A DNA stretch of 64,000 nucleotides from an uncultured Bacillales bacterium (GTDB lineage: Bacteria; Bacillota_I; Bacilli_A; RFN20; CAG-288): the NCBI GenBank assembly GCA_949287425.1, contig CASEGJ010000005.1:82955-146954 (forward strand), in the 5' to 3' direction. Numbering within the stretch: position 1 is the first letter of the stretch; each line of letters starts with the position of its first letter. Shown piece by piece: positions 6,401 through 26,009 of the stretch. Under the pieces are notes generated by a model that was not told the DNA's origin, did no database searches, and saw nothing but the letters and a program-made list of their open reading frames with translations. The translations under genes were made by a program, and so were the position numbers.

Positions 6401-8242
6401 TTACTTCTTTTCTGTGTAATTAGCATCGTAGACGTTTTTATCGTCATTAGAAGCATCGTTACTTGTATTAGTAGAAGTATCTTGTTGAGAATTAGTTTGA
6501 GCTTGACTACTAGCAGCTTGTTGAGCAGCGGCAGCTTGTCTTTCCAATTCATCAAGTTTACTCTTTAATCCTTCAATATCATTTTTATCCAAAGCGGATT
6601 TAACTTCATCTCTCAATTTAGTAACTTGTTCTTTTTGATTTGGATCAATCTTATCACCAGCATTAGATAAAGATTCATCGATATTTGAAATTAATTGTTC
6701 AGCTCTATTTCTAACTTCAACTTCTTCTTTACGTTTTTCATCAGCAGCTTTATTAGCTTCAGCTTCTTTAACCATTCTATCGATTTCTTCTTTAGAAAGG
6801 CCATTGGAATTAGAGATAGTAATTTGTTGTTCTTTATTAGTATCTAAATCTTTAGCTTTAACATTGACAATACCATTGACATCAATTGAGAAAGTAACTT
6901 CAATTCTAGGTTGACCTCTTCTAGCAGGTCTAATTCCATCAAGTTTGAAATGACCTAGCATTTTATTATCTCTAGCCATTGGACGTTCACCTTGGTAAAC
7001 GACAACATCAACAGCAGGTTGATTATCTTCAGCAGTTGAGAAAACCTGTGATTTAGTGGTAGGAATAGTGGTGTTTCTTTGAATTAATGGGGTCATAACA
7101 CCACCTAAAGTTTCAATACCTAAAGTTAAAGGAGTAACATCGAGTAAAACAATATCTTTTAAATCACCAGCAATGACAGCACCTTGAATAGAAGCACCTA
7201 TAGAAACAGCTTCATCAGGGTTAACAGACATGTTAGGTTGTTTACCAGTCATTCTTTTAACAAGTTCTTGAACAGCAGGCATTCTAGTTGAACCACCAAT
7301 TAACAAAACAGTATTTAAATCATTGAAAGTTAATTTAGCATCAGACATAGCCTTTCTAACAGGTTCTTCACATCTAGCTAATAAAGATCTAGTTAAGTCT
7401 TCAAATTTAGCTCTAGTTAGTTTAGTTTCAAAGTTAACAGGACCATTAGCATTAAAAGCGATATAAGGTAAGGTAATAGTAGCTTCTAATGAGCTAGATA
7501 AAGTAATCTTAGCTTTTTCAGATTCATCTTTTAATCTTTGTAAAGCCATCTTATTAGTTGAAAGGTCAACACCAGATTGTTTCTTGATTTCTTCTAAAAG
7601 GAAATCAGAAATAGCTTTATCCCAGTCATCACCACCTAAGTTAGTATCACCTGAAGTAGCGACAACTTCATAAACACCATCAGCAATATCCAAGATAGAA
7701 ACATCTAAAGTACCACCGCCTAAATCAAAGACCATAATGTTTTGATTTTTATCAGTTTTAATACCATATGCTAAAGCAGCAGCAGTAGGTTCATTAATAA
7801 CTCTAACAACATCTAAGCCTGCAATAGTACCTGCATCTTTAGTAGCTTGTCTTTGAGCATCGTTAAAATACGCAGGACAAGTAATAACAGCTTTTTTAAC
7901 TTCATGACCGATATTATCTTCAGCGTATTTTTTCATATATGCTAAGACTTTAGCGGAAATTTCTTGAGGAGTGTAATCTTTGTTAGTGCAGCTAATATGA
8001 ACTTTATAATCGCTACCCATCTTTCTTTTAATAGAATAAACAGTATCTGGATTAGTGACCATTTGTCTTTTAGCAGCATCACCAACTATTTCTTCCCCAT
8101 CAGATTTAAATGAGACGACAGATGGAGTTGTGTTACGTCCTTCTGGATTAGGAATAACTTTAACATTTCCATCAGCCTGCATATAGGAAACTACTGAGTT
8201 AGTAGTACCTAAGTCAATACCAATAATTACTTCTTTTGCCAT
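6401..8242 (-). CDS. dnaK: molecular chaperone DnaK (Hsp70)
   Basis: [18 protein letters not shown], full-length 613-aa Hsp70; GGAGG RBS. Confidence 0.95.
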
Positions 8243-11142: not shown

Positions 11143-13011
11143 TTATTCAGCTGCTGAAATTACTGCTGAAAAGCTTCCATAAAAACTAGTGGTTCCGATA
11201 ATACTTATACTTGATTCAGAAACTACCTCTAATGTAAGTTTAGAAATATATGTCATAAAATCAGAGCTTGGGAATGTTAATAAATTAGCGATAAATTCAA
11301 TAGTAGCACTATCAGTCACAATATATTCATCTTGCAAAGTTGCATCCGCTTTAAATGATGATGTATCTAGATTATTTAAACTTGTAAAGACATCGTTTTC
11401 TAACATATCTCCATCATAAGTATCACCTAATACTTCTTCACCCTCTACTAAAGTATATCTAGTTAATTTACCTTCGTTCATCTTATAACCATATGATTTA
11501 GTTTCATCAGATAAATTTTTAACTAAGTAATTAGTTTCACTAACATTAATTTCAATATTACCGATTTCATTCAAATTTGGAGCAAAAGTACTAAATTTAT
11601 TTTCAAGAACAATCTTGTAATTCTTGCTATCTTTAATACTAGTAAAAGTCTCTATCAATTTAGAGATATCACTTGAATCAAAATCTTTATTTTCTTCGAT
11701 ATAAGATTCAATAACATCATTTTTAGTAGTATTGATATTAGTAATTACAACATGGAAAGTAGCTTCAGATTCAATATGTAGATCAAATTCCAATTTAGTA
11801 TCAGAAATAGAAGTAAATAAAGCATAATCAGTTTCAGCATTTACTACTGGAAAATAATTAACAGTATGAACTAAATCATATAAAGAAGTTAGAACTGAAA
11901 CATTGTTAGATAGTTTTAACCCACCTTCTACTTCTTCTAAAGATAAGTTACTTAAATTGATATTCTTAAAATTATGAATACTACTTACATTGTCCCAAAA
12001 AGAATGAGAAGTAGACGAACTATATGTAATTTCACTTCCTATAACTACTTGATTACCTTCTAAAGTGAAATTATAAGCAGAGTTAGCAAGATTCAAATAC
12101 CCTTTACTTAAACTTGGAGTTAACTTGTTATCTGAATAGTAATAATCGCTAGTTACAGTATCGATATAGTGATTAGAATTGCTAGAATTAGTAACTTCTA
12201 AAGTATAGTTATTATCATTTTTTAAAGTCTGCAAAACAGAAATTAGATTTTCAGATAAATCTACTTTAGCTGAACCACCATTTTCAATATATTCATCAAT
12301 ATAAGGAATTTCAGTTTCACCAATTGAATGCAATTCACCCACACAACTACCAGTATAATTAGGATTATCTGGAGTAAAAGTAACTGTTGAAATAAAACTG
12401 GTCTCACTAGTAACTTCTACACTAACTTCAATATAAGGTAAAACATAAACATCACCATACCCAGCAAGAACAGCAAATAATAATTTATTAGCATCATCAG
12501 TTATCTTATAAGTATTATCTTCACTTACTTGATTAGAAAAAGCGTCAATATTAAAATCTGCAAAACTAATAATTGCATTATCCCATAATCCTGAAATAAC
12601 ACTCCCCTGCTGATTTCTATAAAAATCGCCTGGAACTACTTGGTTATCTTCAATAATAAATTCAAAAACTTGATTTGAATTATCTTCAGCATAACCAAAT
12701 GGAACTGCTGAATCATTTGATGGATTAATATAATCAACATAATAAGCTTTCTCAGTATAATAGATGTTAGTTGTCATATCGAAAATTTCATCATTCATCG
12801 TATATGTATAATTTTTTAATTCAGCGATATTTCTCATTACTTGTTGTAATGAAGGTAATTCCTTGTTTGTTGAGCTGCTAGTAATAGGAGTTTGACTAGA
12901 AACTGAATTTTCACTTGAAGATGAACTGCTCCCTACTCCTGTTTGATTATTACAAGCTACTAGCATCAATATAGGTAAAGCTAATATAACTGTTAAAAAC
13001 TTTTTCTTCAT
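11143..13011 (-). CDS. lipoprotein with Ser-rich linker (Mollicutes/Firmicutes-type surface lipoprotein), function unknown
   Basis: MKKKFLTVILALPILMLVAC lipobox followed by GSSSSSSENSVSS; AGGAGG RBS 8 nt upstream of the ATG at 13011. The upstream 13 codons in the ORF track are a spurious extension. Confidence 0.6.
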   Translation of the reverse strand: MKKKFLTVILALPILMLVACNNQTGVGSSSSSSENSVSSQTPITSSSTNKELPSLQQVMRNIAELKNYTYTMNDEIFDMTTNIYYTEKAYYVDYINPSNDSAVPFGYAEDNSNQVFEFIIEDNQVVPGDFYRNQQGSVISGLWDNAIISFADFNIDAFSNQVSEDNTYKITDDANKLLFAVLAGYGDVYVLPYIEVSVEVTSETSFISTVTFTPDNPNYTGSCVGELHSIGETEIPYIDEYIENGGSAKVDLSENLISVLQTLKNDNNYTLEVTNSSNSNHYIDTVTSDYYYSDNKLTPSLSKGYLNLANSAYNFTLEGNQVVIGSEITYSSSTSHSFWDNVSSIHNFKNINLSNLSLEEVEGGLKLSNNVSVLTSLYDLVHTVNYFPVVNAETDYALFTSISDTKLEFDLHIESEATFHVVITNINTTKNDVIESYIEENKDFDSSDISKLIETFTSIKDSKNYKIVLENKFSTFAPNLNEIGNIEINVSETNYLVKNLSDETKSYGYKMNEGKLTRYTLVEGEEVLGDTYDGDMLENDVFTSLNNLDTSSFKADATLQDEYIVTDSATIEFIANLLTFPSSDFMTYISKLTLEVVSESSISIIGTTSFYGSFSAVISAAE

Positions 13012-13065
13012 AATTTTCCTCCTTGCATAATAGTAAATAAATATTATCAAAGCGCTTTTATTTAT

Positions 13066-13101
13066 GCAACAAAAATACCCCTATAAATACATATAGAGGT
13101 A
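13066..13101 (-). terminator. intrinsic terminator ending the pur operon
   Basis: Minus-strand hairpin TACCTCTATA-tgtattt-ATAGGGGTA (one mismatch) followed by TTTTTGTTG, 16 nt after the purL stop. Confidence 0.55.
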
Positions 13102-13116
13102 TTAAGATTTAATTAA

Positions 13117-16100
13117 TTAGTTTTTGTCAAAATATTCTTTGGCGGATTTAAACATCTTTAATTCATAATTACCAGGAACGTTTTTATAAAGCCCATAACC
13201 AGATCTTTCAGCATGTCCCATCTTACCAAATATTCTTCCATCTTTAGAACAAATTCCTTCAATAGCCAAAGTTGAACCATTAGGATTAAAATGAATATTC
13301 ATAGTAGGATTATTATTTAAATCGACATATTGAGTGGCAATTTGTCCATTTTTAACTAATTCTGATAGCAAATTATCTTCGATAACAAATCTACCTTCTC
13401 CATGTGAAATGGCGACATTATATATTTCATCGACTTTAGTATTTTTTAACCATATAGATTTATTAGAAGCGATTCTTGTTCTTACTATCATCGATTGATG
13501 GCGAGAAATAGTATTAAATGTCAAAGTAGGTGAATGCTCATCACAATCTAAAATCTTTCCATATGGAAGTAAACCCAATTTAACTAAAGCTTGGAAACCA
13601 TTACAAATTCCTGCAATTAATCCGCCGTTTTTATCTAAAAGATTCTCTACTTCATCTTTAATCAACTTATTTCTAAAAAATGAAGTGATAAATTTAGCAG
13701 AACCATCAGGTTCATCACCTCCAGAAAAGCCTCCTGGAATAAAAATAATTTGAGATTCTCTAATTAATTTGGCAAATTCATAAGTAGATTTAACAATATC
13801 CTGACTCGTCAAATTATTAATAACGTAAATTGTTGGATCTAAACCTTCATCGATGGCCTTTTTAGCTGTATCATACTCACAATTAGTTCCTGGAAATACT
13901 GGAATTAATATTTTAGGTTTATAAATAATTGTTGGTGAATGAGGATATTTATCTATCTTATAAGAAACTTTTTCAACTTTTTGCTTTTTCCAAACCTCAT
14001 TTTGCTTTTTAAAGTTAACTGGATAAACATTTTCAAGTTTATCTTCGTATCGTTTTAAAAGATCTTCAAGTAAAATTTCTTGATTTTGATAGGTAAATTT
14101 AGCTTCGGAAATTATTTTACCTAGTTCGATAACTTCAAAATTTAATTCAGAAACATCATCAATATCTTCCACTTCAACTACTATACTTCCATATGAGTAA
14201 TTAAATAGTAAATTTAATGATAAATTAGAATCGTATTCAAAACCTAACTTATTGCCAATCGCTTGTTTAAATATGGCTTCACTAACCCCACCATAACTAA
14301 CTGCGTACATAGAATATACCTTCTTACTAGAAACTAATTCTTCACAAGCTTTAAATACATCTAATAAAGATGAGATTTCAGGCAATTCATCTTCATATTT
14401 TGGCTTAAGTAAAATTACTTTATGACCTACTTGCTTAAATTCATTTGAAACGATATTATTAACATCACTTGTTGTAACAGCAAATGAAACTAAACTAGGT
14501 GGAACATCTATATTTTCAAAACTACCTGACATAGAATCTTTTCCACCAATAGAAGCAATTTGTAAATCAAGTTGAGCTTTTAAAGCACCTAATAAACTAG
14601 AAAGCGGCTTTCCCCATCTAGAAGCATCTTTATTTAATCTTTCAAAATATTCTTGGAATGTTAAATAAATATCTTTATATTTACATCCAGCAGCAATCAA
14701 TTTACTTACCGATTCAATAACTGCTAAATATGCTCCTTTATATTGATTTATTTCAGAAATAAACGGATTAAAACCATAGCTCATTATAGAAGCTAAGTTT
14801 GTGTGTCCTTTTTCAACAGAAACTTTAAAAGCTAAAACCTGTTCAGGAGTCAATTGATATTTTCCACCATATGGCATCAAAATAGTATTAGCACCAATAG
14901 TAGAATCGAATCTATTTACTAATCCTTGCTGAGAACATACATTTAAATCAGAAACTAAATCAAAATAATTAGATTTAAAATCACCAGTTATATTCTTAGA
15001 ATAATTTCCCTGTTTATTAACTTTAACATCAACGTGCTTTTTAGCTCCGTTAGACGAAAGAAATTCTCTAGAAATATTGACGATTACTTCATCGTTCCAT
15101 CTCATTGATAAATATGGCTTACTAGTAACTTTAGCAACAATATTGGCTTCTAAATTTTCACGATTAGCTAACTCTAAAAATTCCTTAGCATCATTGTAAT
15201 TAACAACAACAGCCATTCTTTCTTGAGATTCAGAAATAGCTAGTTCTGTTCCATCTAAACCTTCGTATTTTTTAGTTACAGCATTTAAATCGATATCTAA
15301 TCCATCAGCTAATTCACCAATAGCGACACTTACTCCACCTGCACCAAAATCATTGCATCTTTTTATTAATTTTGTTGCCTTAGGATTTCTAAATAACCTC
15401 TGTAATTTTCTTTCTTCAAGAGGGTTGCCTTTTTGAACTTCTGCACCACAGTGAGATAAACTTGTGACATCGTGAGCTTTAGATGAACCAGTAGCTCCAC
15501 CACAGCCATCTCTACCAGTTCTTCCACCAAGCAAAATTACAACATCCCCTTCTTGAGGAGTTAATCTTATAACATTTTCACTTGGAGTAGCAGCTATAAC
15601 AGCACCTATTTCCATTCTTTTAGCAACATAATTAGGATGATATATTTCATTAACATAACCAGTAGCTAATCCAATTTGGTTACCATAAGAAGAATATCCA
15701 TCACTAGCAGTTTGACAGATCTTCTTTTGAGGTAATTTACCTTTTAATGTTTTAGATATTTCACTAGTAGGATCACCAGCTCCAGTTATTCTCATTGCCC
15801 CATAAACATAGCTTCTCCCTGAAAGAGGGTCTCTAATAGCACCACCTATACAAGTAGCAGCTCCACCAAACGGCTCAATTTCTGTTGGGTGATTGTGAGT
15901 TTCATTTTTAAATAACAACAACCAATCTTCTAATTTATTATCAACGTCGACTTTTATTTTTACAGTACAAGCGTTAACTTCTTCTGATTCATCTAGCTTA
16001 TCTAATTTGCCTAGTTTTTTTAATACTTTAATACCGATTGTAGCAATATCCATTAAACAAATTGGTTTTTTATCATTTACTTGTTTTCTATATTCAAGAT

Positions 16101-16842
16101 ATTCTTCATAAGCTTTTTGAATAGTGCTATCTTCAAAAATGACATTATCCAATTGAGTTAAAAATGTAGTGTGACGACAATGATCTGACCAATATGTATC
16201 GATAACTTTAATTTCAGTAATACTTGGATCTCTTTTTTCAGATTTAAAATATTCTTGGCAAAATTCTAAATCCGCTAAATCCATAGCTAAACCATTACTA
16301 GTTAAAAATTGCTCAAGTTGATTTTTAGTATATGAAATAAAGCCATCGATAATTTTTACTTTGTTAGGTTTAGGATAAGTTTCAATTAAACTATCATAAG
16401 AAGATAAACTTGCAAGTCGAGCTTCAACAGGGTTAATTAAATAATCTTGTATCTTTTTAACATCATCATTTGATAAATTACCATAAAGTTTATAGATAGT
16501 AGCTGTTTTAACTAACGGTCTTTGTTTTTGAGTTAACAATTGAATACATTGACTAGCCGAATTAGCTCTAACATCAAATTGACCCGGAAGATATTCAACG
16601 CCAAATACTATAGAAGCATCATCATTTAAACTAGTATATGTTTCATCAACTTGCTTTTCAGAAAGAATCAAATCGACAGCTTTTTTAAAATCTTCTTCAG
16701 AAATTTCATCTAGATCATAGCGATTAAATATTTTGACATTTTCCAAATTAGAAATGCCTAAAAACGTTTTTAAATCACTAAGTAAACCTTTTTCTTTAGC
16801 ATTAAAACCTTCTTTTTTTCTAACGTATATTCTATAGACCAT
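13117..16842 (-). CDS. purL: phosphoribosylformylglycinamidine (FGAM) synthase, single-chain large type
   Basis: 1241 aa with N-terminal PurS-like region, AIRS-like synthetase domains and C-terminal glutaminase domain (ICNGFQALVKLG, Cys nucleophile); no separate purQ/purS. Confidence 0.9.
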   Translation of the reverse strand: MVYRIYVRKKEGFNAKEKGLLSDLKTFLGISNLENVKIFNRYDLDEISEEDFKKAVDLILSEKQVDETYTSLNDDASIVFGVEYLPGQFDVRANSASQCIQLLTQKQRPLVKTATIYKLYGNLSNDDVKKIQDYLINPVEARLASLSSYDSLIETYPKPNKVKIIDGFISYTKNQLEQFLTSNGLAMDLADLEFCQEYFKSEKRDPSITEIKVIDTYWSDHCRHTTFLTQLDNVIFEDSTIQKAYEEYLEYRKQVNDKKPICLMDIATIGIKVLKKLGKLDKLDESEEVNACTVKIKVDVDNKLEDWLLLFKNETHNHPTEIEPFGGAATCIGGAIRDPLSGRSYVYGAMRITGAGDPTSEISKTLKGKLPQKKICQTASDGYSSYGNQIGLATGYVNEIYHPNYVAKRMEIGAVIAATPSENVIRLTPQEGDVVILLGGRTGRDGCGGATGSSKAHDVTSLSHCGAEVQKGNPLEERKLQRLFRNPKATKLIKRCNDFGAGGVSVAIGELADGLDIDLNAVTKKYEGLDGTELAISESQERMAVVVNYNDAKEFLELANRENLEANIVAKVTSKPYLSMRWNDEVIVNISREFLSSNGAKKHVDVKVNKQGNYSKNITGDFKSNYFDLVSDLNVCSQQGLVNRFDSTIGANTILMPYGGKYQLTPEQVLAFKVSVEKGHTNLASIMSYGFNPFISEINQYKGAYLAVIESVSKLIAAGCKYKDIYLTFQEYFERLNKDASRWGKPLSSLLGALKAQLDLQIASIGGKDSMSGSFENIDVPPSLVSFAVTTSDVNNIVSNEFKQVGHKVILLKPKYEDELPEISSLLDVFKACEELVSSKKVYSMYAVSYGGVSEAIFKQAIGNKLGFEYDSNLSLNLLFNYSYGSIVVEVEDIDDVSELNFEVIELGKIISEAKFTYQNQEILLEDLLKRYEDKLENVYPVNFKKQNEVWKKQKVEKVSYKIDKYPHSPTIIYKPKILIPVFPGTNCEYDTAKKAIDEGLDPTIYVINNLTSQDIVKSTYEFAKLIRESQIIFIPGGFSGGDEPDGSAKFITSFFRNKLIKDEVENLLDKNGGLIAGICNGFQALVKLGLLPYGKILDCDEHSPTLTFNTISRHQSMIVRTRIASNKSIWLKNTKVDEIYNVAISHGEGRFVIEDNLLSELVKNGQIATQYVDLNNNPTMNIHFNPNGSTLAIEGICSKDGRIFGKMGHAERSGYGLYKNVPGNYELKMFKSAKEYFDKN

Positions 16843-16843
16843 A

Positions 16844-18115
16844 CTAATTCTCTCCTTTAATAAAATCTATACCTGATTTGCCAATATCTTTTCTATAAAA
16901 TAAATTTTCACATGAAATCTTTCTAACATCTTTATAAGTGTTAGAAATAGCTTCTTGTAGAGATTTTCCAAAATTAACAATCCCTAATACTCTTCCGCCA
17001 TTAGTAACTAACTTACCATCTTTTTTACTTACACCAGAAAAATATACATTTTTAAGGCCGTTTAAATCTATTAGATAACCTTTTTGATAAGAATCTGGAT
17101 AACCTTTACTAGCTAAAATTACGCAGCAAGCATATTCGTTTTTAAATTTAAGATTCACTTGATTTAAAGTTTCATTACTTACATGTTGCATAACGTCTAG
17201 CAAATCGTTTTTTAGTAAAGGTAAAACAACTTGAGCTTCAGGATCACCAAAACGAGAATTATATTCAATAACTTTAGGACCTAATGGAGTTAACATCAAT
17301 GAAAAATAAAGACAACCTTTAAATTTAATACCTTCTTGATTTAAAGCATATAAGGTTTTATCAATTATATTTTTCTTGCAATATTCTTCTATTTCTTTTG
17401 TATAGCATGGATTAGGAGAAATAGTACCCATTCCACCAGTATTTGGACCTTTGTTATTATCGTAAGCGCGTTTATGATCCATTGAAGATATCATTGGTAA
17501 AATAGTTTTACCATCGCAAAAAGTCAAAACAGAAACTTCAGGTCCAGTTAAAAATTCTTCAATAACAATTTTGTTACCAGCTTGGCCAAATTTAGCATCT
17601 AACATCATAGATTTAATCGCTTGAAGACCTTCTTGCAAGTTATTAGCGATTATTACCCCTTTACCTAAAGCTAATCCATCAGCTTTAATAACTTGAGGAA
17701 AGCTAGCACTTTCTAGATATTTTTTAGCATCTTCATATTTTTCAAAAACTTCAAATTTAGCAGTAGGAATATCGTATTTTTCCATGAGTCTTTGTGCAAA
17801 AATTTTGCTAGCTTCAATCTGTGCGGCCTTTTTATTTGGACCAAAGCAAGGAATAGAATGTTCTTCTAATAAATCAACTAAACCATTTGCTAACGGATCA
17901 TCTTGACCAACAACGACATAATCTATTTTTTCATCTAAACAAAATTTTAAAATACTTGGAAAATCTAACGCGGAGATATTAACAGGAATTGCAACATCTT
18001 CCATACCTATATTTCCTGGTAAAACATAAATCTTTTCAACTTGTGGATTTTTTCTAATACAACTAGCAATAACATGCTCTCTTCCACCAGAACCAACAAC
18101 AGCAATCTTCATCAT
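16844..18115 (-). CDS. purD: phosphoribosylamine--glycine ligase
   Basis: ATP-grasp; MKIAVVGSGGREH N-terminus; start ATG overlaps purN stop (ATGA). Confidence 0.9.
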   Translation of the reverse strand: MMKIAVVGSGGREHVIASCIRKNPQVEKIYVLPGNIGMEDVAIPVNISALDFPSILKFCLDEKIDYVVVGQDDPLANGLVDLLEEHSIPCFGPNKKAAQIEASKIFAQRLMEKYDIPTAKFEVFEKYEDAKKYLESASFPQVIKADGLALGKGVIIANNLQEGLQAIKSMMLDAKFGQAGNKIVIEEFLTGPEVSVLTFCDGKTILPMISSMDHKRAYDNNKGPNTGGMGTISPNPCYTKEIEEYCKKNIIDKTLYALNQEGIKFKGCLYFSLMLTPLGPKVIEYNSRFGDPEAQVVLPLLKNDLLDVMQHVSNETLNQVNLKFKNEYACCVILASKGYPDSYQKGYLIDLNGLKNVYFSGVSKKDGKLVTNGGRVLGIVNFGKSLQEAISNTYKDVRKISCENLFYRKDIGKSGIDFIKGEN

Positions 18116-18705
18116 TTTTCTCCTAACAACATCTTAGCGACTTTTTCACTCGCTAATGGCAATATCTTCCATTCAGCTAATCTCATTATCCGTTTTTGAA
18201 GGCTTTCGGGAGTATCATCATCTTTTACTTTTACAGCTTTTTGCATAATAATTTTTCCACCATCGGGAATTTCATTGACAAAATGAACACTAGCACCGGA
18301 AACTTTTACTCCATATTCTAATGCCTTTTGATGTACTTTTATTCCATAATAACCTTTTCCACAAAAAGAAGGGATTAATGAAGGGTGAATATTTATTATC
18401 TTGCCATTTAATTCTCTTTCGAAATTAGAAATAAATTCACTTGATAAAATAGCTAAATAACCAGCTAAAACAATCAAACGTATGTTGTTTTCTTTAAGTA
18501 AATTTAAAATATAACTATCATCTTTACTAACATAACTAGGGATATTGTGATTTTTAGCCCTAGTTAAAGCGTAAGCATCCTTTTTGTTAGAAAGGACAAA
18601 TTTTATATCAACATGAGGCATAATTCCCTTTTTAGAAGAAAGAATTAAATGTTCTAAATTAGTTCCGCCTCCAGAAACAAAAACTGCAGTATTTATCTTT
18701 TCCAT
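18112..18705 (-). CDS. purN: phosphoribosylglycinamide formyltransferase
   Basis: 197 aa; formyltransferase motifs (IINIHPSLIP); ends with TGA stop, showing TGA is not Trp here. Confidence 0.85.
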   Translation of the reverse strand: MEKINTAVFVSGGGTNLEHLILSSKKGIMPHVDIKFVLSNKKDAYALTRAKNHNIPSYVSKDDSYILNLLKENNIRLIVLAGYLAILSSEFISNFERELNGKIINIHPSLIPSFCGKGYYGIKVHQKALEYGVKVSGASVHFVNEIPDGGKIIMQKAVKVKDDDTPESLQKRIMRLAEWKILPLASEKVAKMLLGEK

Positions 18706-18707
18706 AA

Positions 18708-19892
18708 TTAGTGATGAAACAATCTCGAATGTGTAAAGACCATAACCATGTTATATAAGTTAGCTTTAGCAATAACATCATCATCGCGAATTGAGCCACC
18801 AGGTTCAGCAACATAACTTACTCCTGATTGACTAGCCCTATCGATATTATCTCCAAATGGGAAGAAAGCATCAGAAGTTAAACTGACACCTTTAATATTA
18901 GATAAATATTCTTTTTGCATAGTTCTAGTAAATGGTTCAGGTTTAATTTCAAAATAATTTTCCCATTTACCTTCTTCTAGAATATCCATATAGTCATTTG
19001 AAAGGTAAATATCTATCAAATTATCTCTATCAGCTCTTTTTAAATTAGATTTAAACTTCAAATCTAAAACTCTATCAGATTGTCTTAAAAACCATAAATC
19101 TGCTTTATTTCCTGCTAATCTTGTGCAATGAACCCTAGATTGTTGACCAGCACCAACACCGATAGCTTGACCTTGATAAGAAAAGCAAACAGAATTAGAT
19201 TGAGTATATTTTAAAGTAATTAAACCTACAGTTAAATCTAAAATAGCCTCTTTGGTTAAATTTTTATTTGTAGTTACTATATCTTTAAAAGTGTTTTCAT
19301 CCACTCTATAATCATTTCTTTCCTGTTGAAAACAAACGCCAAAAACATCTCTAATTTCTAATTTTTTAGGAACGTAATTAGGATTAACTTTCAATATACA
19401 GTAATTTCCCTTTTTCTTTTCCTTTAAAAGTTCTAAAGCTTGCTTAGAATATGAAGGGGCGATAATACCATCAGATACTTCTCTATGAATCAATTTAGCA
19501 GTAGTTAAATCACATTCATCAGATAACGCGATAAAATCACCAAATGAAGAAAGTCTATCTGTACCTCTTGCTCTAGCATAAGCACAGGCTAATAAAGAAT
19601 CATCAAGTCCATTAACATCATTAACAAAACACGCTTTTTTTAAGCTTGTTGGCAAAATAGAACCTACGCTAGCTGAAGTAGGAGAAACATGCTTAAAAGA
19701 ACTAGCAGATGGTAAATTGGTAGCCTGTTTAAGTTGACTTACTAATTGATAAGAATTAAAAGCATCTAATAAATTGATATACCCTGGTTTACCATTTAAA
19801 ACCTCAAAAGGCAAATCAGAACCATCTTCCATAAATACTTTAGCTTGCTTTTGATTAGGATTACATCCGTATTTTAACAATAATTCTTTCAT
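18708..19892 (-). CDS. purH: AICAR transformylase-domain-only PurH (lacks the N-terminal MGS-like IMP cyclohydrolase domain)
   Basis: 394 aa beginning LKYGCNPNQ (compare the AICARFT motif LRYGENPHQ that normally sits ~270 aa into bifunctional PurH); GGAGG RBS. Confidence 0.7.
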   Translation of the reverse strand: MKELLLKYGCNPNQKQAKVFMEDGSDLPFEVLNGKPGYINLLDAFNSYQLVSQLKQATNLPSASSFKHVSPTSASVGSILPTSLKKACFVNDVNGLDDSLLACAYARARGTDRLSSFGDFIALSDECDLTTAKLIHREVSDGIIAPSYSKQALELLKEKKKGNYCILKVNPNYVPKKLEIRDVFGVCFQQERNDYRVDENTFKDIVTTNKNLTKEAILDLTVGLITLKYTQSNSVCFSYQGQAIGVGAGQQSRVHCTRLAGNKADLWFLRQSDRVLDLKFKSNLKRADRDNLIDIYLSNDYMDILEEGKWENYFEIKPEPFTRTMQKEYLSNIKGVSLTSDAFFPFGDNIDRASQSGVSYVAEPGGSIRDDDVIAKANLYNMVMVFTHSRLFHH

Positions 19893-19893
19893 G

Positions 19894-20619
19894 TTATTCC
19901 TCCGATAAGCTATATTTATTAATTATCTTAGTAGTGATCTGTTTAGTTTTAACATCTATATATTTTACAACTAAAGAAATCTTGTTCTTTTCGTTTAATG
20001 AATTCCAAATTTTACTCGCTAATTCTTCAATATTTAAACTTGGTAAATCGATTAACTTAGGTTCACCATTAAAACTTAATAAGACGTTAGATTCACTAGG
20101 AATATTTGTAGCATAAGTATGGATAAAATAGCCGCAATTTGGATTAAATGTATAATTAAAAAAGAACCTTTGACAATTTAAACCGAGATTTTCTTCGGAT
20201 TTTAAAATAGACAATTTAAAATTCATTTTTTCAAAATCTATAATAGCAGAGATTCGCGGAGTAAAATTTGGAGAATCAGGTTCAAATTCTCTAGTTAATA
20301 AGCTTTCTTCAAAGCTTTTATTTTCTTGAAGAAAATTATAGATAGTGTCTGTTTGATCTCCATTAGTAACAATCAATTTATTGTCGTATTTTCTAACTGG
20401 ATAATAAATTATTAAACTAGGATCTTCTACTAATTTGGGATTTGCTGGTAAAATCTTGACATTTTCCCCATCTTCAACAAAAACTCTATTTTGAGAATTT
20501 TTGCTTCTTCCCATTATAAAATAGATTGAGCATATTGTATGTGAGTCAATTTGACCGACAATTATTCCTCTACCTGGATACAAACTGCCCTTTAATTCGT
20601 CAAATAAATCTAATTTCAT
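19894..20619 (-). CDS. purO: archaeal-type IMP cyclohydrolase (PurO-like)
   Basis: LYPGRGIIVGQ...YFIMGRSKNSQNR...PANPKL...IIYYPVRKYDNKLIVTNGDQTDTIY follows the M. jannaschii PurO pattern YLGRILAVGR...RVSSRSFPNR...VVSNGSHTDTIA (from memory); sits exactly where IMP cyclohydrolase activity is missing from the truncated purH. Confidence 0.55.
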   Translation of the reverse strand: MKLDLFDELKGSLYPGRGIIVGQIDSHTICSIYFIMGRSKNSQNRVFVEDGENVKILPANPKLVEDPSLIIYYPVRKYDNKLIVTNGDQTDTIYNFLQENKSFEESLLTREFEPDSPNFTPRISAIIDFEKMNFKLSILKSEENLGLNCQRFFFNYTFNPNCGYFIHTYATNIPSESNVLLSFNGEPKLIDLPSLNIEELASKIWNSLNEKNKISLVVKYIDVKTKQITTKIINKYSLSEE

Positions 20620-21665
20620 TATCTAACCTCAACTTTTTCTTTGTCAGATTTTTCAATTTGACCAATGCAATATGCTTTTTGATTGTTATTTTTCAAAATT
20701 TCTATGGTCTTTTCAACATCTTTTTTATCAACAGCTAAGACCATACCAACGCCCATATTGAAAGTGTTAAACATATCGTGAATAGAAATATTCCCGACTT
20801 TTTGAATGTATTTAAATATATCTAAAACCTCAATTTCATCTTTATATATTACGCCTTTTAAACCCTTTGGAATCGATCTAGCTAACTTTTCATAATAACC
20901 ACCACCAGTAATGTGAGAAATAGTGTGAACTTCAACTTCTTTTAACAATTCCAAAACAGGTTTAACGTAAATTTTAGTTGGTTCTAACAAAACTTCACCT
21001 AAAGATTTTCCACCTAATTCAGCAACTGGCTTTAAAAGTTCATCTTTAGATTTATTATCAATATCAAAGACTTTTCTAACTAATGAAAAACCGTTAGAAT
21101 GAACCCCTGAAGAAGCTAAGCCAATTAAGACATCGCCTTCTTTTAATTTGGAACCATCAATTATTTTATCTTTTTCAACAATACCGACACTAAAGCCAGC
21201 TAAATCATATTCGCCTTCTTTATAAAATCCTGGCATTTCGGCAGTTTCTCCACCAACTAAAGAAGCATAAGAATCGATGCAACCTTTTGAAACGCCCTTA
21301 ACTAAATTAGCGACAACTTCCGGTTGATTTTTACCACAAGCAATATAATCTAAAAATATGATTGGTCTAGCACCTAAACGCAAAATATCATTAACACACA
21401 TTGCTACACAATCAATTCCAACTGTGTCGTACTTTTCCAAAATAAACGCTAATTTGAGCTTAGTTCCTACTCCATCAGTACCGCTAACTAAGACAGGATG
21501 AGTATAATTTGATGGAAGTTCAAATAGTCCATAGCCACCTTTATCAATCTTAGCGCCATCAAGTAAAGTAGCTTGAACATACTTTTGCATTAATTCTACT
21601 GCTTTATAGCCTGAAGTTATATCAACTCCAGATTGTTCATATGCTTTTGAAGAGGAATTTTCCAT
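20619..21665 (-). CDS. purM: phosphoribosylformylglycinamidine cyclo-ligase (AIR synthetase)
   Basis: Start at MENSSSKAYEQSGVDITSGY with AAGGAG RBS (the ORF-track N-terminal 38 aa are an extension into purF); PurM/AIRS domains. Confidence 0.9.
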   Translation of the reverse strand: MENSSSKAYEQSGVDITSGYKAVELMQKYVQATLLDGAKIDKGGYGLFELPSNYTHPVLVSGTDGVGTKLKLAFILEKYDTVGIDCVAMCVNDILRLGARPIIFLDYIACGKNQPEVVANLVKGVSKGCIDSYASLVGGETAEMPGFYKEGEYDLAGFSVGIVEKDKIIDGSKLKEGDVLIGLASSGVHSNGFSLVRKVFDIDNKSKDELLKPVAELGGKSLGEVLLEPTKIYVKPVLELLKEVEVHTISHITGGGYYEKLARSIPKGLKGVIYKDEIEVLDIFKYIQKVGNISIHDMFNTFNMGVGMVLAVDKKDVEKTIEILKNNNQKAYCIGQIEKSDKEKVEVR

Positions 21666-21666
21666 A

Positions 21667-23139
21667 TTAATCTCCTTTATTGTTTCTTTGTGAATGTTTT
21701 TGTTTCCATTCATCAGATATTTTGTTTTCAAAGCGGTTTTTTGAAGCGTTTGATGGTATTTTAGTTGGATAAACTCCATCGAAACACGCCTTACAATATC
21801 CTTGATTGCATTTTCTAGGACAAACTATTTTTTCCAAAGCTTCTAAAGAAAGATAACCGAGTGAATCAACTCCAATTATCTTAGCTATTTCAGGAATTGT
21901 ATGGTGAAAAGCAATCAAATTTTCTTGAGAATCAACATCAGTTCCATAATAACATGGATAAATAAATGGCGGACAAGTTAAACGCATGTGAACTTCTTTA
22001 GCTCCAGCATCTCTAACTAACTTAACTAATCTAGCAGAAGTTGTTCCTCTTACTATAGAATCATCAACTAAAACAACTCTTTTTCCTTGAATAACTTCTT
22101 TAATAGGATTTAATTTAAGTTTGACCATTTGTTCTCTAAGTTTTTGATTACTTGCAATAAAAGTTCTACCTATATATTTATTTTTTAACAGTCCTATTTC
22201 ATAAGGTATTTTAGATTCTTTTGAATATCCTATAGCCGCATCTAATCCTGAATCAGGAACTCCAATTACAACATCAGCATCAACTTTATGCTCTTTAGCT
22301 AATAATTCACCAGCTTTAACGCGAGCTTGATGCACGCTTGCTCCTTCAATAATAGAATCAGAACGCGCAAAATAGATATATTCAAAAATACATAAAGAAG
22401 ACTTCTTGCTATTGCAATGTCTAGTATATGAATTAATAGTTCCATCGAAATTAAAGACTAAAATTTCGCCTGGTTCTACATCTCTAATTAACTTAGCACC
22501 TACGCAATCTAAAGAACAAGATTCAGAAGCTACAACATAACTTCCATCTTCCATTTGACCATAGCAAAGAGGTCTAAAACCATATGGATCACGGCAACAA
22601 ATCAATTTAGAAGGTGTCATCATTACTAAAGAATAAGCTCCGTCAATAACATCCATTGTTTTATCTAAAGCTTCTTCCATAGATTTAGAATTTATTCTTT
22701 CCCTAGTTAAAATGTATGATATAACTTCAGTATCAGTTGTAGTTTGGAAAATACATCCTTCCAATTCTAATTTGTTTCTCAATTCATATGAATTAACTAA
22801 ATTGCCATTATGACATAAAGCTAAATGACCTTTAGAATGATTTACAACCATAGGCTGAGCATTCATTCTATTAGTAACTCCAGAAGTCGAATATCTAACA
22901 TGGCCAATACAAATTGAGCCTTTACCTAGACTTGCTAATCTTTCACTAGTAAAAACATCGTTTAACAAACCTAAATCTTTATAATAGTGAAAAATACCTT
23001 CGTTATTTATTGCAATACCACAAGCTTCTTGACCGCGATGTTGTAAAGCAAATAAACCGCCGTAAGTTAGATTTGCTAAATCTTCTTCTTTTTGACTAAT
23101 AATTCCAAAAACACCACACTCTTCATTTATTTTAGCCAT
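21667..23139 (-). CDS. purF: amidophosphoribosyltransferase
   Basis: MAKINEECGVFGI (propeptide + Ntn Cys); PRTase motif VVLVDDSIVRGTT; C-terminal 4Fe-4S cysteines. Confidence 0.9.
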   Translation of the reverse strand: MAKINEECGVFGIISQKEEDLANLTYGGLFALQHRGQEACGIAINNEGIFHYYKDLGLLNDVFTSERLASLGKGSICIGHVRYSTSGVTNRMNAQPMVVNHSKGHLALCHNGNLVNSYELRNKLELEGCIFQTTTDTEVISYILTRERINSKSMEEALDKTMDVIDGAYSLVMMTPSKLICCRDPYGFRPLCYGQMEDGSYVVASESCSLDCVGAKLIRDVEPGEILVFNFDGTINSYTRHCNSKKSSLCIFEYIYFARSDSIIEGASVHQARVKAGELLAKEHKVDADVVIGVPDSGLDAAIGYSKESKIPYEIGLLKNKYIGRTFIASNQKLREQMVKLKLNPIKEVIQGKRVVLVDDSIVRGTTSARLVKLVRDAGAKEVHMRLTCPPFIYPCYYGTDVDSQENLIAFHHTIPEIAKIIGVDSLGYLSLEALEKIVCPRKCNQGYCKACFDGVYPTKIPSNASKNRFENKISDEWKQKHSQRNNKGD

Positions 23140-23143
23140 GAAG

Positions 23144-23863
23144 TTAGTTTTCTCCCATTAATCTTTTAATAACTTCATGATAAGCTTCTTCAACATTTCC
23201 TAAATCTCTTCTAAATCTATCTTTATCGAGCTTTTCATGAGTTGTCGAATCCCAAAAACGGCAAGTATCAGGAGAAATTTCATCAGCTAAGATGATTGTT
23301 CCATCATTTAACTTACCAAATTCTAATTTAAAATCGACTAAATCGATATTATCTTGTTTTAAGTACTCTCTTAAAATATCGTTAATTTTTAAAGCGTAAT
23401 TAGTAATAGTAGCTAAATCTTCTTTTGAACATAATCCTAAAGCGGCAATATGATAAGAATTAACTAAAGGATCACCTAATTCATCATCTTTATAGCAAAA
23501 TTCTAAAACTGTTGATTTTAAAATTTCACCTTCTTTTAAACCTAATCTTTTAGCTAAAGATCCAGCAGCAATATTTCTAACAATAACTTCAAGAGGAACA
23601 ATTTTACACGCTTTAACTATTGTTTCAGTGTGATTTAATTCTTCTACATAATCAGTAGGAATCCCTTTAGTTTCTAACATTTTCATTAAAAAGTTAGTAA
23701 CTCTATTGTTAATAGCCCCTTTACCGATAATAGTTCCTTTTTTAAGGCCGTTAAAAGCAGTAGCGTCATCTTTATACGAAACGATATAGTAGTTAGGATC
23801 TTCAGTTAAAAAGACCTTCTTAGCTTTACCTTCGTATTTTTGTTCTTTTTTAGTTAAATTCAT
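23144..23863 (-). CDS. purC: phosphoribosylaminoimidazole-succinocarboxamide (SAICAR) synthase
   Basis: Start [18 protein letters not shown] with GGAGG RBS 6 nt upstream; SAICAR synthetase family. Confidence 0.9.
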
Positions 23864-23891
23864 AATATCCTCCATATTTTAACTTTTATTT

Positions 23892-24383
23892 TTAATTGTA
23901 TTTTTTAGAAACTAATTCATTTTTTTCCAAAACTTTATTTCTGTTATCAATTCTAAATTGTTGTAACTTTTCTAATAGTTTTGGTTCATTTAAAGCGAGA
24001 ATTTCAATTGCTAACAAACAAGCGTTACTCGCATTATCAATACCGACACAAGCAACTGGTACACCTTTTGGCATCATAACTGTCGATAATAAAGCGTCCA
24101 TACCTTCTAGGTGTTTACTTGAACAAGGGATACCGATAACTGGTAAAACAGTTGAACTAGCTATAACACCACCAAGATGGGCAGCCATTCCTGCCCCACA
24201 AACAATAACCCCAAAATCGTTTTCAATAGCTTTGTTAGCAAATTCTAAAGCTTCGTTAATGCATCTATGAGCTGAATAGACATGTACCTCAAAAGGAACT
24301 TCAAAATCTTTTAAGACTTGTATTCCTTTTTCCATAATAGGTAAATCAGAATCAGATCCCATAATAAGCGCTACTTTTTTCAT
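23892..24383 (-). CDS. purE: 5-(carboxyamino)imidazole ribonucleotide mutase / AIR carboxylase
   Basis: Start MKKVALIMGSDSDLPIM with GGAGGG RBS; PurE fold; no adjacent purK. Confidence 0.9.
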   Translation of the reverse strand: MKKVALIMGSDSDLPIMEKGIQVLKDFEVPFEVHVYSAHRCINEALEFANKAIENDFGVIVCGAGMAAHLGGVIASSTVLPVIGIPCSSKHLEGMDALLSTVMMPKGVPVACVGIDNASNACLLAIEILALNEPKLLEKLQQFRIDNRNKVLEKNELVSKKYN

Positions 24384-24656
24384 TCTTCCCTCCAAATCGT
24401 AAAAAATAAAAACAATAAAATGAAGTATTAATCCAACTTCACAAAGAACTAGTCAGCAATAAGGCTAATATCAATTTTTCTTGCAATAAATAATAACTTA
24501 GATCACTGATAGCTCTAACGATTACTATCTTACTTAAAATATAAAACACCATAAAAATTTATTCAATAGTTTGAAAATAAAAAAATTATTAAAGCGCTAT
24601 CAATTTGTTTTTTAAGTCAAAATATCTTTTTTACACAAATCTACTATTAAAAATTA

Positions 24657-24685
24657 TTGCTTAGTCTTTTGCTAGTTGTTAATAT
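24657..24685 (+). promoter_or_regulatory. candidate sigma-A promoter for purB (TTGCTT-N17-TAATAT)
   Basis: -35 at 24657-24662, -10 at 24680-24685, GAGGA RBS at ~24702, ATG at 24714. Confidence 0.35.
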
Positions 24686-24713
24686 TAAAAAGTAGAGAAA
24701 AAGAGGATATAAA

Positions 24714-26009
24714 ATGATTGAACGTTACGCTAGCAAACAACTTATCGACTTATTTAATGATGAATCGAGATTCAAAGCCTATTTAAAAACCGAAATTGAA
24801 TGCACTAAAGCTTGGGCTAAAATTGGTGTAGTTCCAATTAAAGATGCTGAACTAATTGAAAAAAACGCTAAAATTGATGTCGCTAAAATTATCGAATTAG
24901 AAAATATCACCCATCATGATATAGTAGCTTTTACTAGAGTCGTAGATACTTATTTAGGTGAAGAAAAAAAGTGGTTGCATTTTGGTTTAACTTCCACTGA
25001 CATCGTCGATACTTCTATGTCATATCTATATAAACAAGCCAATCAAATTATTGAGGATGAATTAGTTTTACTTATTCAAGCTGTTAAACAAAAAGCCATC
25101 CAATATAAAAACACCCCTTGTATAGCTAGAACTCATGGTATGCATGCTGAAGTAACTTCTTTTGGATTAAAATGGGCTTTATATTACGATGAACTTAATA
25201 GAGATTTCAAACGCTTTAAGCAAGCTAGAAAAGATTTAGAAGCCTGTAAAATATCTGGCTCAGTCGGTAATTTTGCTAACGTCCCACCTGAAGTTCAAGA
25301 TTATGTCGCTTCTAGTTTGGGCTTAACAAACACCAATATTTCAACTCAAGTTCTTCAACGCGACAGACATTCTTACTATGCTAGTGTAGTTGCAATAATC
25401 GGCTCAACTATAGAAAAAATATGCTGCGAAATTAGAAATCTATCTAGAACTGAAATCCACGAATTAGAAGAAGGTTTTTCTAAAGGTCAAAAAGGCTCTT
25501 CATCTATGCCTCAAAAAAGAAATCCTATCTCTAGTGAAAATTTAACAGGAGCTGCTAGAATGCTGCGCGGTTATCAAACAACCATTTTAGAAAATAACGC
25601 TTTATATCACGAAAGAGATATTTCCCATTCTTCAGTAGAAAGAGTTGTCTTAGTTGATTTAATTGAATTATTTGAATATATGGTTAGAAGAATGACAAGA
25701 GTCATCAATAATTTAACTATCTTCCCTGATAAGATGCTTGAAAACATTCAAATCACTAAGCAAGCCTTCTTTTCTCAAAGAATCATGTCCAATATCATTT
25801 TGAAAGGATATTCAAGAGAAGAAGCTTATGATTTTGTTCAACCATTAGCTATGAAAGCTGTTCTAGGTGGTCAAAACTTAGAATCTCAACTTAGACAAGA
25901 TCCAACAATTCAAAAAATATTTAATAGTGAAGAATTAGATAACTTATTTGATATTTCTTACTATTTAAAACATGTAGATGATATTTATAAGCGTGTAGGT
26001 TTAGAATAA
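24714..26009 (+). CDS. purB: adenylosuccinate lyase
   Basis: 431 aa; fumarate-lyase family signature GSSSMPQKRNP; N-terminus MIERYASKQL. Confidence 0.9.
   Translation: MIERYASKQLIDLFNDESRFKAYLKTEIECTKAWAKIGVVPIKDAELIEKNAKIDVAKIIELENITHHDIVAFTRVVDTYLGEEKKWLHFGLTSTDIVDTSMSYLYKQANQIIEDELVLLIQAVKQKAIQYKNTPCIARTHGMHAEVTSFGLKWALYYDELNRDFKRFKQARKDLEACKISGSVGNFANVPPEVQDYVASSLGLTNTNISTQVLQRDRHSYYASVVAIIGSTIEKICCEIRNLSRTEIHELEEGFSKGQKGSSSMPQKRNPISSENLTGAARMLRGYQTTILENNALYHERDISHSSVERVVLVDLIELFEYMVRRMTRVINNLTIFPDKMLENIQITKQAFFSQRIMSNIILKGYSREEAYDFVQPLAMKAVLGGQNLESQLRQDPTIQKIFNSEELDNLFDISYYLKHVDDIYKRVGLE

Follow-up and report, generated by a model that had tools for sequence, protein, structure and literature searches.

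The uncultured bacterium studied here very probably completes de novo purine synthesis, in its final two steps, with two separate, co-translated proteins, a transformylase-only PurH (PurV) and a PurO-like protein, which would replace the fused PurH. The arrangement of PurO with a transformylase-only PurH is real, was already published in 2019, is routinely annotated and is common in gut Clostridia. New in the present analysis are riboswitches that precede the pair in relatives, a naturally occurring fusion of PurO with the transformylase, and the finding that the transformylase resembles eukaryotic ATIC more than E. coli PurH. We infer that the PurO-like protein is catalytically active and that the genome encodes no other IMP cyclohydrolase.

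In the proposed pathway, PurV would convert AICAR to FAICAR with 10-formyl-tetrahydrofolate, using Lys67-His68, and the PurO-like protein would close the FAICAR ring by dehydration to yield IMP, using conserved Arg, Glu and Tyr residues. The unfavourable equilibrium of the transformylase would be pulled forward by the cyclohydrolase made alongside, an argument of Xu et al. (2007) as summarised in PMC6486802. Because the cyclohydrolase would have to be co-made, this scheme may account for the tight pairing of the two genes, for the location of the purV ribosome-binding site inside the end of purO, and for the occasional fusion of both proteins.

Organization of the purine operon

The window analysed here, a stretch of 64,000 nucleotides (64 kb), carries on its minus strand a nine-gene operon in the order purE-purC-purF-purM, a gene for a 241-aa protein, a gene for a 394-aa protein, and purN-purD-purL. 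The initial annotation had described the pair as embedded in a purine operon of this very order. The following features were delimited:

24714-26009, plus strand: purB, adenylosuccinate lyase, divergent (PF00206 and PF10397 on the identical gene of a public contig)
24396-24713, minus strand: AT-rich leader/intergenic region of 318 nt, from purE to the divergent purB (without Rfam riboswitch match)
23892-24395, minus strand: purE, first gene of the operon (TIGR01162, 186 bits)
23144-23875, minus strand: purC (TIGR00081, 246 bits)
21667-23139, minus strand: purF (TIGR01134, 521 bits)
20619-21665, minus strand: purM, 348 aa as called on identical public contigs (TIGR00878, 425 bits)
19894-20619, minus strand: purO-like gene, 241 aa, predicted bacterial-clade IMP cyclohydrolase (PF07826 and fold match)
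18708-19892, minus strand: purV, AICAR transformylase-only PurH, 394 aa (NF005492)
18112-18705, minus strand: purN (TIGR00639, 155 bits; cutoff 150)
16844-18115, minus strand: purD (TIGR00877, 495 bits)
13117-16842, minus strand: purL, large single-chain FGAM synthase (TIGR01857, 1819 bits)
13074-13103, minus strand: terminator-like hairpin plus T-run, 14 nt 3' of the purL stop (pattern scan; consensus match only)

The genes of the operon are tightly packed, with overlaps or spacers of 1 to 4 nt. The purM stop and the purO start overlap (TAATG), the purO-purV junction reads TAA-C-ATG with the ribosome-binding site of purV (GGAGGAA) placed within the last purO codons, and 2 nt lie between the purV stop codon and the purN start. 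By transcription the 241-aa gene is thus upstream of its partner (purM-purO-purV-purN); the initial annotation had placed it downstream of purH, which holds for a plus-strand reading only. The hairpin behind purL, judged by its pattern, probably marks where transcription of the operon stops. Rfam detected no riboswitch in the window, whether of the purine, ZTP or another class; three tRNAs alone exceeded the gathering score, and the purE-purB region (24250-24800) gave no Rfam match even at E ≤ 1. A promoter scan returned 66 matches versus 59 ± 6.5 in shuffled sequences, i.e. no enrichment.

Family, fold and conserved residues of the PurO-like protein

The 241-aa protein matched the Pfam family PF07826 (IMP_cyclohyd) with 193.2 bits (cutoff 28.1; E = 4.7e-57), its residues 14-222 covering positions 1-189 of the 192 profile positions, and the motifs YPGRGIIVG, RSKNSQNR and IVTNGDQTDTIY were all found in it. 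It scored below the cutoffs of both archaeal models, TIGR01922 purO_arch (46.9 versus 158.35 bits) and the equivalog NF003167 (58.4 versus 150 bits). In an alignment of 50 bacterial, fusion and archaeal sequences, the protein shared approximately 53% identity with bacterial homologues, 34% with the PurO domain of the fusion protein described below, and approximately 23% with archaeal PurO. The protein had initially been called an archaeal-type PurO: the family, the motifs and the PF07826 match were confirmed, while the archaeal type was contradicted by the missed equivalog cutoffs and the low identity. On the strength of these sequence comparisons, we assign the protein to the PurO family (PF07826) as a member of a distinct bacterial subfamily.

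Among solved structures, comparison by sequence alone yielded PurO of M. thermautotrophicus as the sole match, limited to the N-terminal ~120 residues (E = 0.004 for a single-sequence query and 4e-8 for a profile). An AlphaFold2 model of the protein, built with 27 homologues, reached a pLDDT of 89.7 and a pTM of 0.90. The three best PDB matches of this model in Foldseek were 1kuu, 2ntm and 2ntk, all of them M. thermautotrophicus PurO, with E values around 1e-11; for 1kuu, the match had an E value of 9.8e-12 and a TM score of 0.66 (query) or 0.77 (target) over 230 aligned columns. Proteasome subunits came next in the list (E > 1e-4), which is what membership in the Ntn-hydrolase fold class would predict. 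The model displays the four-layer alpha-beta-beta-alpha fold of Ntn-hydrolase type known from 1KUU and 2NTK. Archaeal PurO belongs to this fold class and lacks the N-terminal nucleophile.

Conservation was evaluated at positions shared across archaea and bacteria, as a proxy for the 14 published active-site residues. Invariant in all 50 aligned sequences were Y14, G16, R17, G22, Y33, R38 and Y72, and likewise N86, G87, E113, D115, T120, P121 and R122; in addition, hhalign paired N44/R45 with archaeal N29/R30. Taken together, the invariant positions and the hhalign pairing indicate that each Arg that is invariant in the N-terminal half of archaeal PurO, plus E104 and Y59, has its match in the bacterial protein. 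The catalytic side chains proposed for archaeal PurO are an Arg, a Glu and a Tyr (PMC6797443). A published comparison reported identity between archaea and bacteria at 10 of 14 active-site positions, with the archaeal active-site Tyr56 substituted in bacteria (PMC6486802).

Characterised PurO enzymes are archaeal, namely MJ0626 of M. jannaschii, MTH1020 of M. thermautotrophicus (PDB 1KUU, 2NTK-2NTM) and TK0430 of T. kodakarensis (PMC6486802, PMC6797443, PMC3261824). The window protein shares with them the PF07826 domain, the Ntn-hydrolase-type fold (TM 0.77), the conserved Arg, Glu and Tyr, and the TNG..TD and TPRI motifs. Unlike them, it has about 40 additional residues, with a helix of 13 residues at the N-terminus and an extension at the C-terminus, and it is set apart by its low identity, its scores below the TIGR01922 and NF003167 cutoffs and its position in a separate clade. 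Its partner is the folate-dependent PurV and not PurP, as is also the case in Halobacteria.

A transformylase resembling eukaryotic ATIC

The 394-aa protein matched the NCBIfam equivalog model NF005492 (PRK07106), which describes transformylase-only PurH, with 624.2 bits (cutoff 415; E = 7.5e-188) from end to end, residues 1-394 lying on profile positions 1-390 of 390. As first described, it starts near the LKYGCNPNQ motif (residues 6-14) and lacks an MGS domain: it covers the C-terminal part only of PF01808 (AICARFT_IMPCHas), and no match to PF02142 was found in it. It remained under the cutoffs of both models for bifunctional PurH (TIGR00355, 292.7 versus 528 bits; NF002049, 189.9 versus 402 bits), which it matched at profile positions 206-511 only. 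The FKHVSP segment containing K67 and H68 aligned with FKHVSP of the ATIC structure 7mgq and of Helicoverpa ATIC, and K67/H68 also aligned with the KH of E. coli PurH (VKHANP). This segment holds the catalytic Lys-His pair of ATIC, Lys266/His267 in the human enzyme.

The protein resembles eukaryotic ATIC. Its match to the ATIC structure 7mgq scored 455 bits over chain residues 216-605; scores ranged from 423 to 455 bits for eukaryotic ATIC structures versus 76 to 96 bits for bacterial PurH. The protein was 51% identical to the transformylase domain of insect ATIC with 7 gaps, compared with 28% identity and 97 gaps for the corresponding domain of E. coli PurH, and across eukaryotic ATIC domains the identity was 51-57%. 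Two insertions of ~21 and ~60 residues are common to the 394-aa protein and ATIC and are absent from E. coli PurH. A long ATIC-type representative, the one whose gene context was checked, was located among eukaryotic genes such as those for N-myristoyltransferase and Rad17. The end-to-end match to NF005492, together with the ATIC-type insertions, rules out a recent truncation of a canonical PurH; what had been interpreted as a truncated PurH with domain loss is a full-length member of a curated family of 390 residues.

From the identity to ATIC and the shared insertions it follows that the purO-purV module carries an ATIC-like transformylase lineage. A further reading, possible if rather doubtful from the sequence comparisons at hand, is that PurV and the transformylase domain found in eukaryotic ATIC descend from one ancestor not shared with canonical bacterial PurH. 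If true, the AICARFT module would have passed long ago between eukaryotes and a Clostridia-like lineage, and it would have been joined independently to non-homologous cyclohydrolases, to an MGS-type domain in ATIC and to PurO in bacteria, there through an adjacent gene or, in rare cases, by fusion. No published work on the relationship between PurV and the ATIC transformylase was found in the literature searched, and the history of purH and purV was left by Cruz et al. to later work (PMC6486802).

In comparison with PurH/ATIC as a whole, the window pair is assigned the same two reactions, has the cyclohydrolase first in gene order and contains a homologous AICARFT module with both ATIC-type insertions. 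It differs in that its cyclohydrolase is of PurO type, non-homologous to the methylglyoxal-synthase-like fold, and in that the two functions reside on separate polypeptides.

Distribution, origin and function of the pair

Searches of a protein collection returned at least 8000 homologue clusters for each of the 241-aa and 394-aa proteins, and 3216 clusters when archaeal PurO was the query. Homologues with names were called 'IMP cyclohydrolase' or 'phosphoribosylaminoimidazolecarboxamide formyltransferase' and came from Lachnospiraceae, Ruminococcus, Anaerovoracaceae and other Clostridia. A scan with one genome per GTDB species detected the pair in at least 600 bacterial species genomes, the best matches listed having 49-54% identity. 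Of 80 related loci that were kept, 73 were uncut by a contig end, and purO was followed by purV in 72 of these, the exception being a locus of a Treponema MAG (L055). The pair stood alone in 45 loci and was part of a pur operon in approximately 30, in the order purE(C)FMN-purO-purV-D(L). Unlike these operon-type relatives (purM-purN-purO-purV-purD), the window has purN after purV, which is a minor local variant.

Pairs of this kind were described by Cruz et al. (2019, Genome Biol Evol 11:1235), who reported 22 bacterial purO genes, 19 of them with purV and often within a pur gene context in Clostridia, with conserved active sites (PMC6486802). The window pair agrees with theirs in the two families involved, the adjacency of the genes, the pur-operon context of Firmicutes/Clostridia, the proposed replacement of purH, the conservation of the active site and the separate bacterial clade (PMC6486802). 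It differs in its source, an uncultured bacterium of 29-30% GC that is represented by metagenome assemblies only.

In the relatives, two further features connect purO to the transformylase. Of 21 stand-alone pairs, 9 have a ZMP/ZTP riboswitch (RF01750) on the same strand as purO, 70-320 nt ahead of it; of 11 operon-type loci, 6 have one ahead of purE. ZMP is another name for AICAR, the compound on which the transformylase acts, and a riboswitch placed before the pair indicates that in those relatives the pair is switched on as AICAR accumulates. In addition, an exhaustive search of representative proteins with PurV revealed a natural PurO-AICARFT fusion of 613 aa (cluster P0362 with P0511-P0515; 6 members). 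Its N-terminal part (residues 7-225) resembles PurO, matching the window protein with E = 1e-35, and its residues 227-613 are an AICARFT domain 56% identical to the window PurV. The fusion is a single ORF with both Pfam domains on a 143-kb MAG contig with bacterial-type neighbour genes, and like PurH/ATIC it has the cyclohydrolase N-terminal and the transformylase C-terminal. The ZTP riboswitches, the fusion and the ATIC-like transformylase provide independent support for the assigned function. Given the fold match, the conserved residues, the gene pairing, and the riboswitches and natural fusion in relatives, the PurO-like protein most likely supplies the IMP cyclohydrolase step that is missing from the transformylase-only PurH, as the initial annotation had proposed. 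Counting against this assignment are the scores far under both archaeal equivalog cutoffs, the restriction of the sequence alignment with archaeal PurO to the N-terminal ~120 residues, the substitution of Tyr56, and the lack of a ZTP riboswitch match in the window's own operon.

It is unlikely that the pair is instead redundant, with the step performed by an intact bifunctional purH or a free-standing purJ of MGS type at another site in the genome and the PurO-like protein serving another or an auxiliary role. Such a gene could lie outside the 64 kb of the genome that the window covers, and 3 of the 22 bacterial genomes reported to have purO also carry purH (PMC6486802). However, a tblastn search with six ATIC IMPCH domains gave nothing significant for an MGS-type IMP cyclohydrolase in the 64-kb window, and in published surveys purV and purO are generally anticorrelated with purH (PMC6486802). 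The position of purO inside the pur operon, in translational coupling, likewise argues against redundancy, as do the control by ZTP riboswitches and the fusion to AICARFT in relatives. We consider it very unlikely that the protein is an enzyme of Ntn-hydrolase fold acting on another substrate, e.g. an amide or formyl purine intermediate, with FAICAR being cyclised otherwise. The fold match extends over the full length and is specific to PurO, being far weaker to other proteins of this fold; the 10 of 14 identical active-site positions, and a pairing and fusion with AICARFT that mirror the architecture of PurH, point in the same direction. What speaks for a different substrate is that the C-terminal half has no sequence alignment to archaeal PurO, that the substrate-contacting Tyr56 of archaea differs in bacteria (PMC6486802), and that no published enzyme assay or complementation was found in the literature for any member of the bacterial clade. 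Cyclisation of FAICAR by the PurO-like protein is the reading we retain.

As to the origin of the pair, a neighbour-joining (NJ) tree of the 50 sequences separated archaeal and bacterial PurO as reciprocally monophyletic groups, the archaeal sample being Methanobacteriales-like only (best 120 of 3216 clusters). For the wider split we rely on the published maximum likelihood (ML) tree, in which 59 archaeal and 22 bacterial PurO sequences divide in the same manner, and whose authors argued against transfer from archaea (PMC6486802). The designation of the protein as archaeal-type is not supported by either tree. A recent transfer of purO, alone or with purV, from archaea into a bacterial operon is extremely unlikely, even though the first PurO proteins to be described were archaeal and combinations of purV and purO are typical of Halobacteria and Methanosaetaceae (PMC6486802, PMC3261824). 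Besides the reciprocal monophyly, the failed archaeal equivalog cutoffs and the identity of 23% to archaeal PurO versus 53% to bacterial homologues, the base composition of the two genes (GC 0.27 and 0.31, GC3 0.20 and 0.16) falls inside the range of the neighbouring genes, and close relatives are present in the at least 600 bacterial species genomes and 8000 protein clusters mentioned above. Lateral acquisition as a recent event is therefore not supported. Non-orthologous displacement, the other origin that had been proposed, is a fair description in a broad and ancient sense.

For annotation, these findings have little impact, as names for both proteins are already provided by NCBI models. 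Dependence on a bacterial-clade PurO, a type of enzyme for which we found no published assay, is predicted for many abundant gut Clostridia (Lachnospiraceae, Oscillospiraceae, Butyrivibrio, Roseburia). With at least 8000 bacterial-clade clusters versus 3216 obtained with an archaeal query, PurO is not an archaeal signature.

Gene order of the pur operon and its 3' end

The window carries the order purM-purO-purV-purN-purD (18112-20619). Every operon-type relative examined displays the order purM-purN-purO-purV-purD, indicating that purN was relocated to the opposite side of the purO-purV pair in the window. The pairing of purO and purV is otherwise tight, with an exception in two relatives (genomic loci L008, positions 6746-7891, and L015, positions 6751-7956), where a gene that is weakly purB-like (25% identity) is inserted between them. 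The 3' end of the operon and its downstream neighbor comprise the following features:

11143-13050, minus strand: 635-aa ORF, just 3' of the putative pur operon terminator
13117-16842, minus strand: purL, whose product belongs to a 90%-identity cluster that includes protein P0540

The 635-aa ORF encodes a signal peptide and a lipobox-like LVAC motif followed by a Ser-rich linker, features that point to a probable surface lipoprotein. Public contigs carry an identical gene, which has no recorded Pfam match. P0540 is a partial PurL of 688 aa (WP_286035114.1) deposited as 'Megamonas hypermegale', a name that may reflect either the true source or assembly contamination. All remaining members of this PurL cluster originate from metagenome contigs.

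ZMP/ZTP riboswitches upstream of purO-purV

The ZMP/ZTP riboswitch (RF01750) was found directly 5' of stand-alone purO-purV pairs in 9 of 21 loci, as well as 5' of whole pur operons containing purO-purV in 6 of 11 loci, where it precedes purE (L007, L015, L030, L061, L071 and L080).

RF01750 directly 5' of stand-alone purO-purV pairs (locus, positions within the locus)
L020, 5683-5768
L024, 5774-5871
L029, 5755-5852
L040, 5834-5917
L046, 5825-5906
L047, 5670-5763
L068, 5842-5925
L069, 5850-5933
L075, 5782-5882

For the pur operon of the window itself, Rfam revealed no ZMP/ZTP riboswitch. Its purE is separated from the divergent purB by a 318-nt AT-rich region (24396-24713), for which Rfam gave no match, whether to purine, ZTP, T-box or other families.

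Similarity of PurV to eukaryotic ATIC and a natural PurO-AICARFT fusion

As judged by sequence comparison, the transformylase-only PurV of the window (18708-19892, minus strand) is much nearer to the transformylase domain of eukaryotic ATIC (51-57% identity) than to E. coli PurH (28%). PurV and ATIC moreover have two insertions of approximately 21 and 60 residues in common, and in the PDB, PurV matched eukaryotic ATIC with E-values of 1e-126 to 1e-135 and PurH structures from bacteria with E-values of 1e-20 to 1e-26.

A natural 613-aa fusion protein (P0362, P0511-P0515) is composed of a PurO-like domain (residues 7-225) and an AICARFT domain (residues 227-613). At one locus the whole fusion is encoded by a single ORF located apart from other pur genes, flanked by an MFS transporter gene on one side and an aldolase gene on the other:

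L085, 8001-9842: PurO-AICARFT fusion gene (MAG GCA_944389295.1, contig CALXLV010000028.1)

As in PurH/ATIC, the cyclohydrolase is N-terminal and the transformylase C-terminal, yet the cyclohydrolases of the two proteins are non-homologous. The layout of the fusion converges on that of PurH/ATIC with a non-homologous cyclohydrolase.
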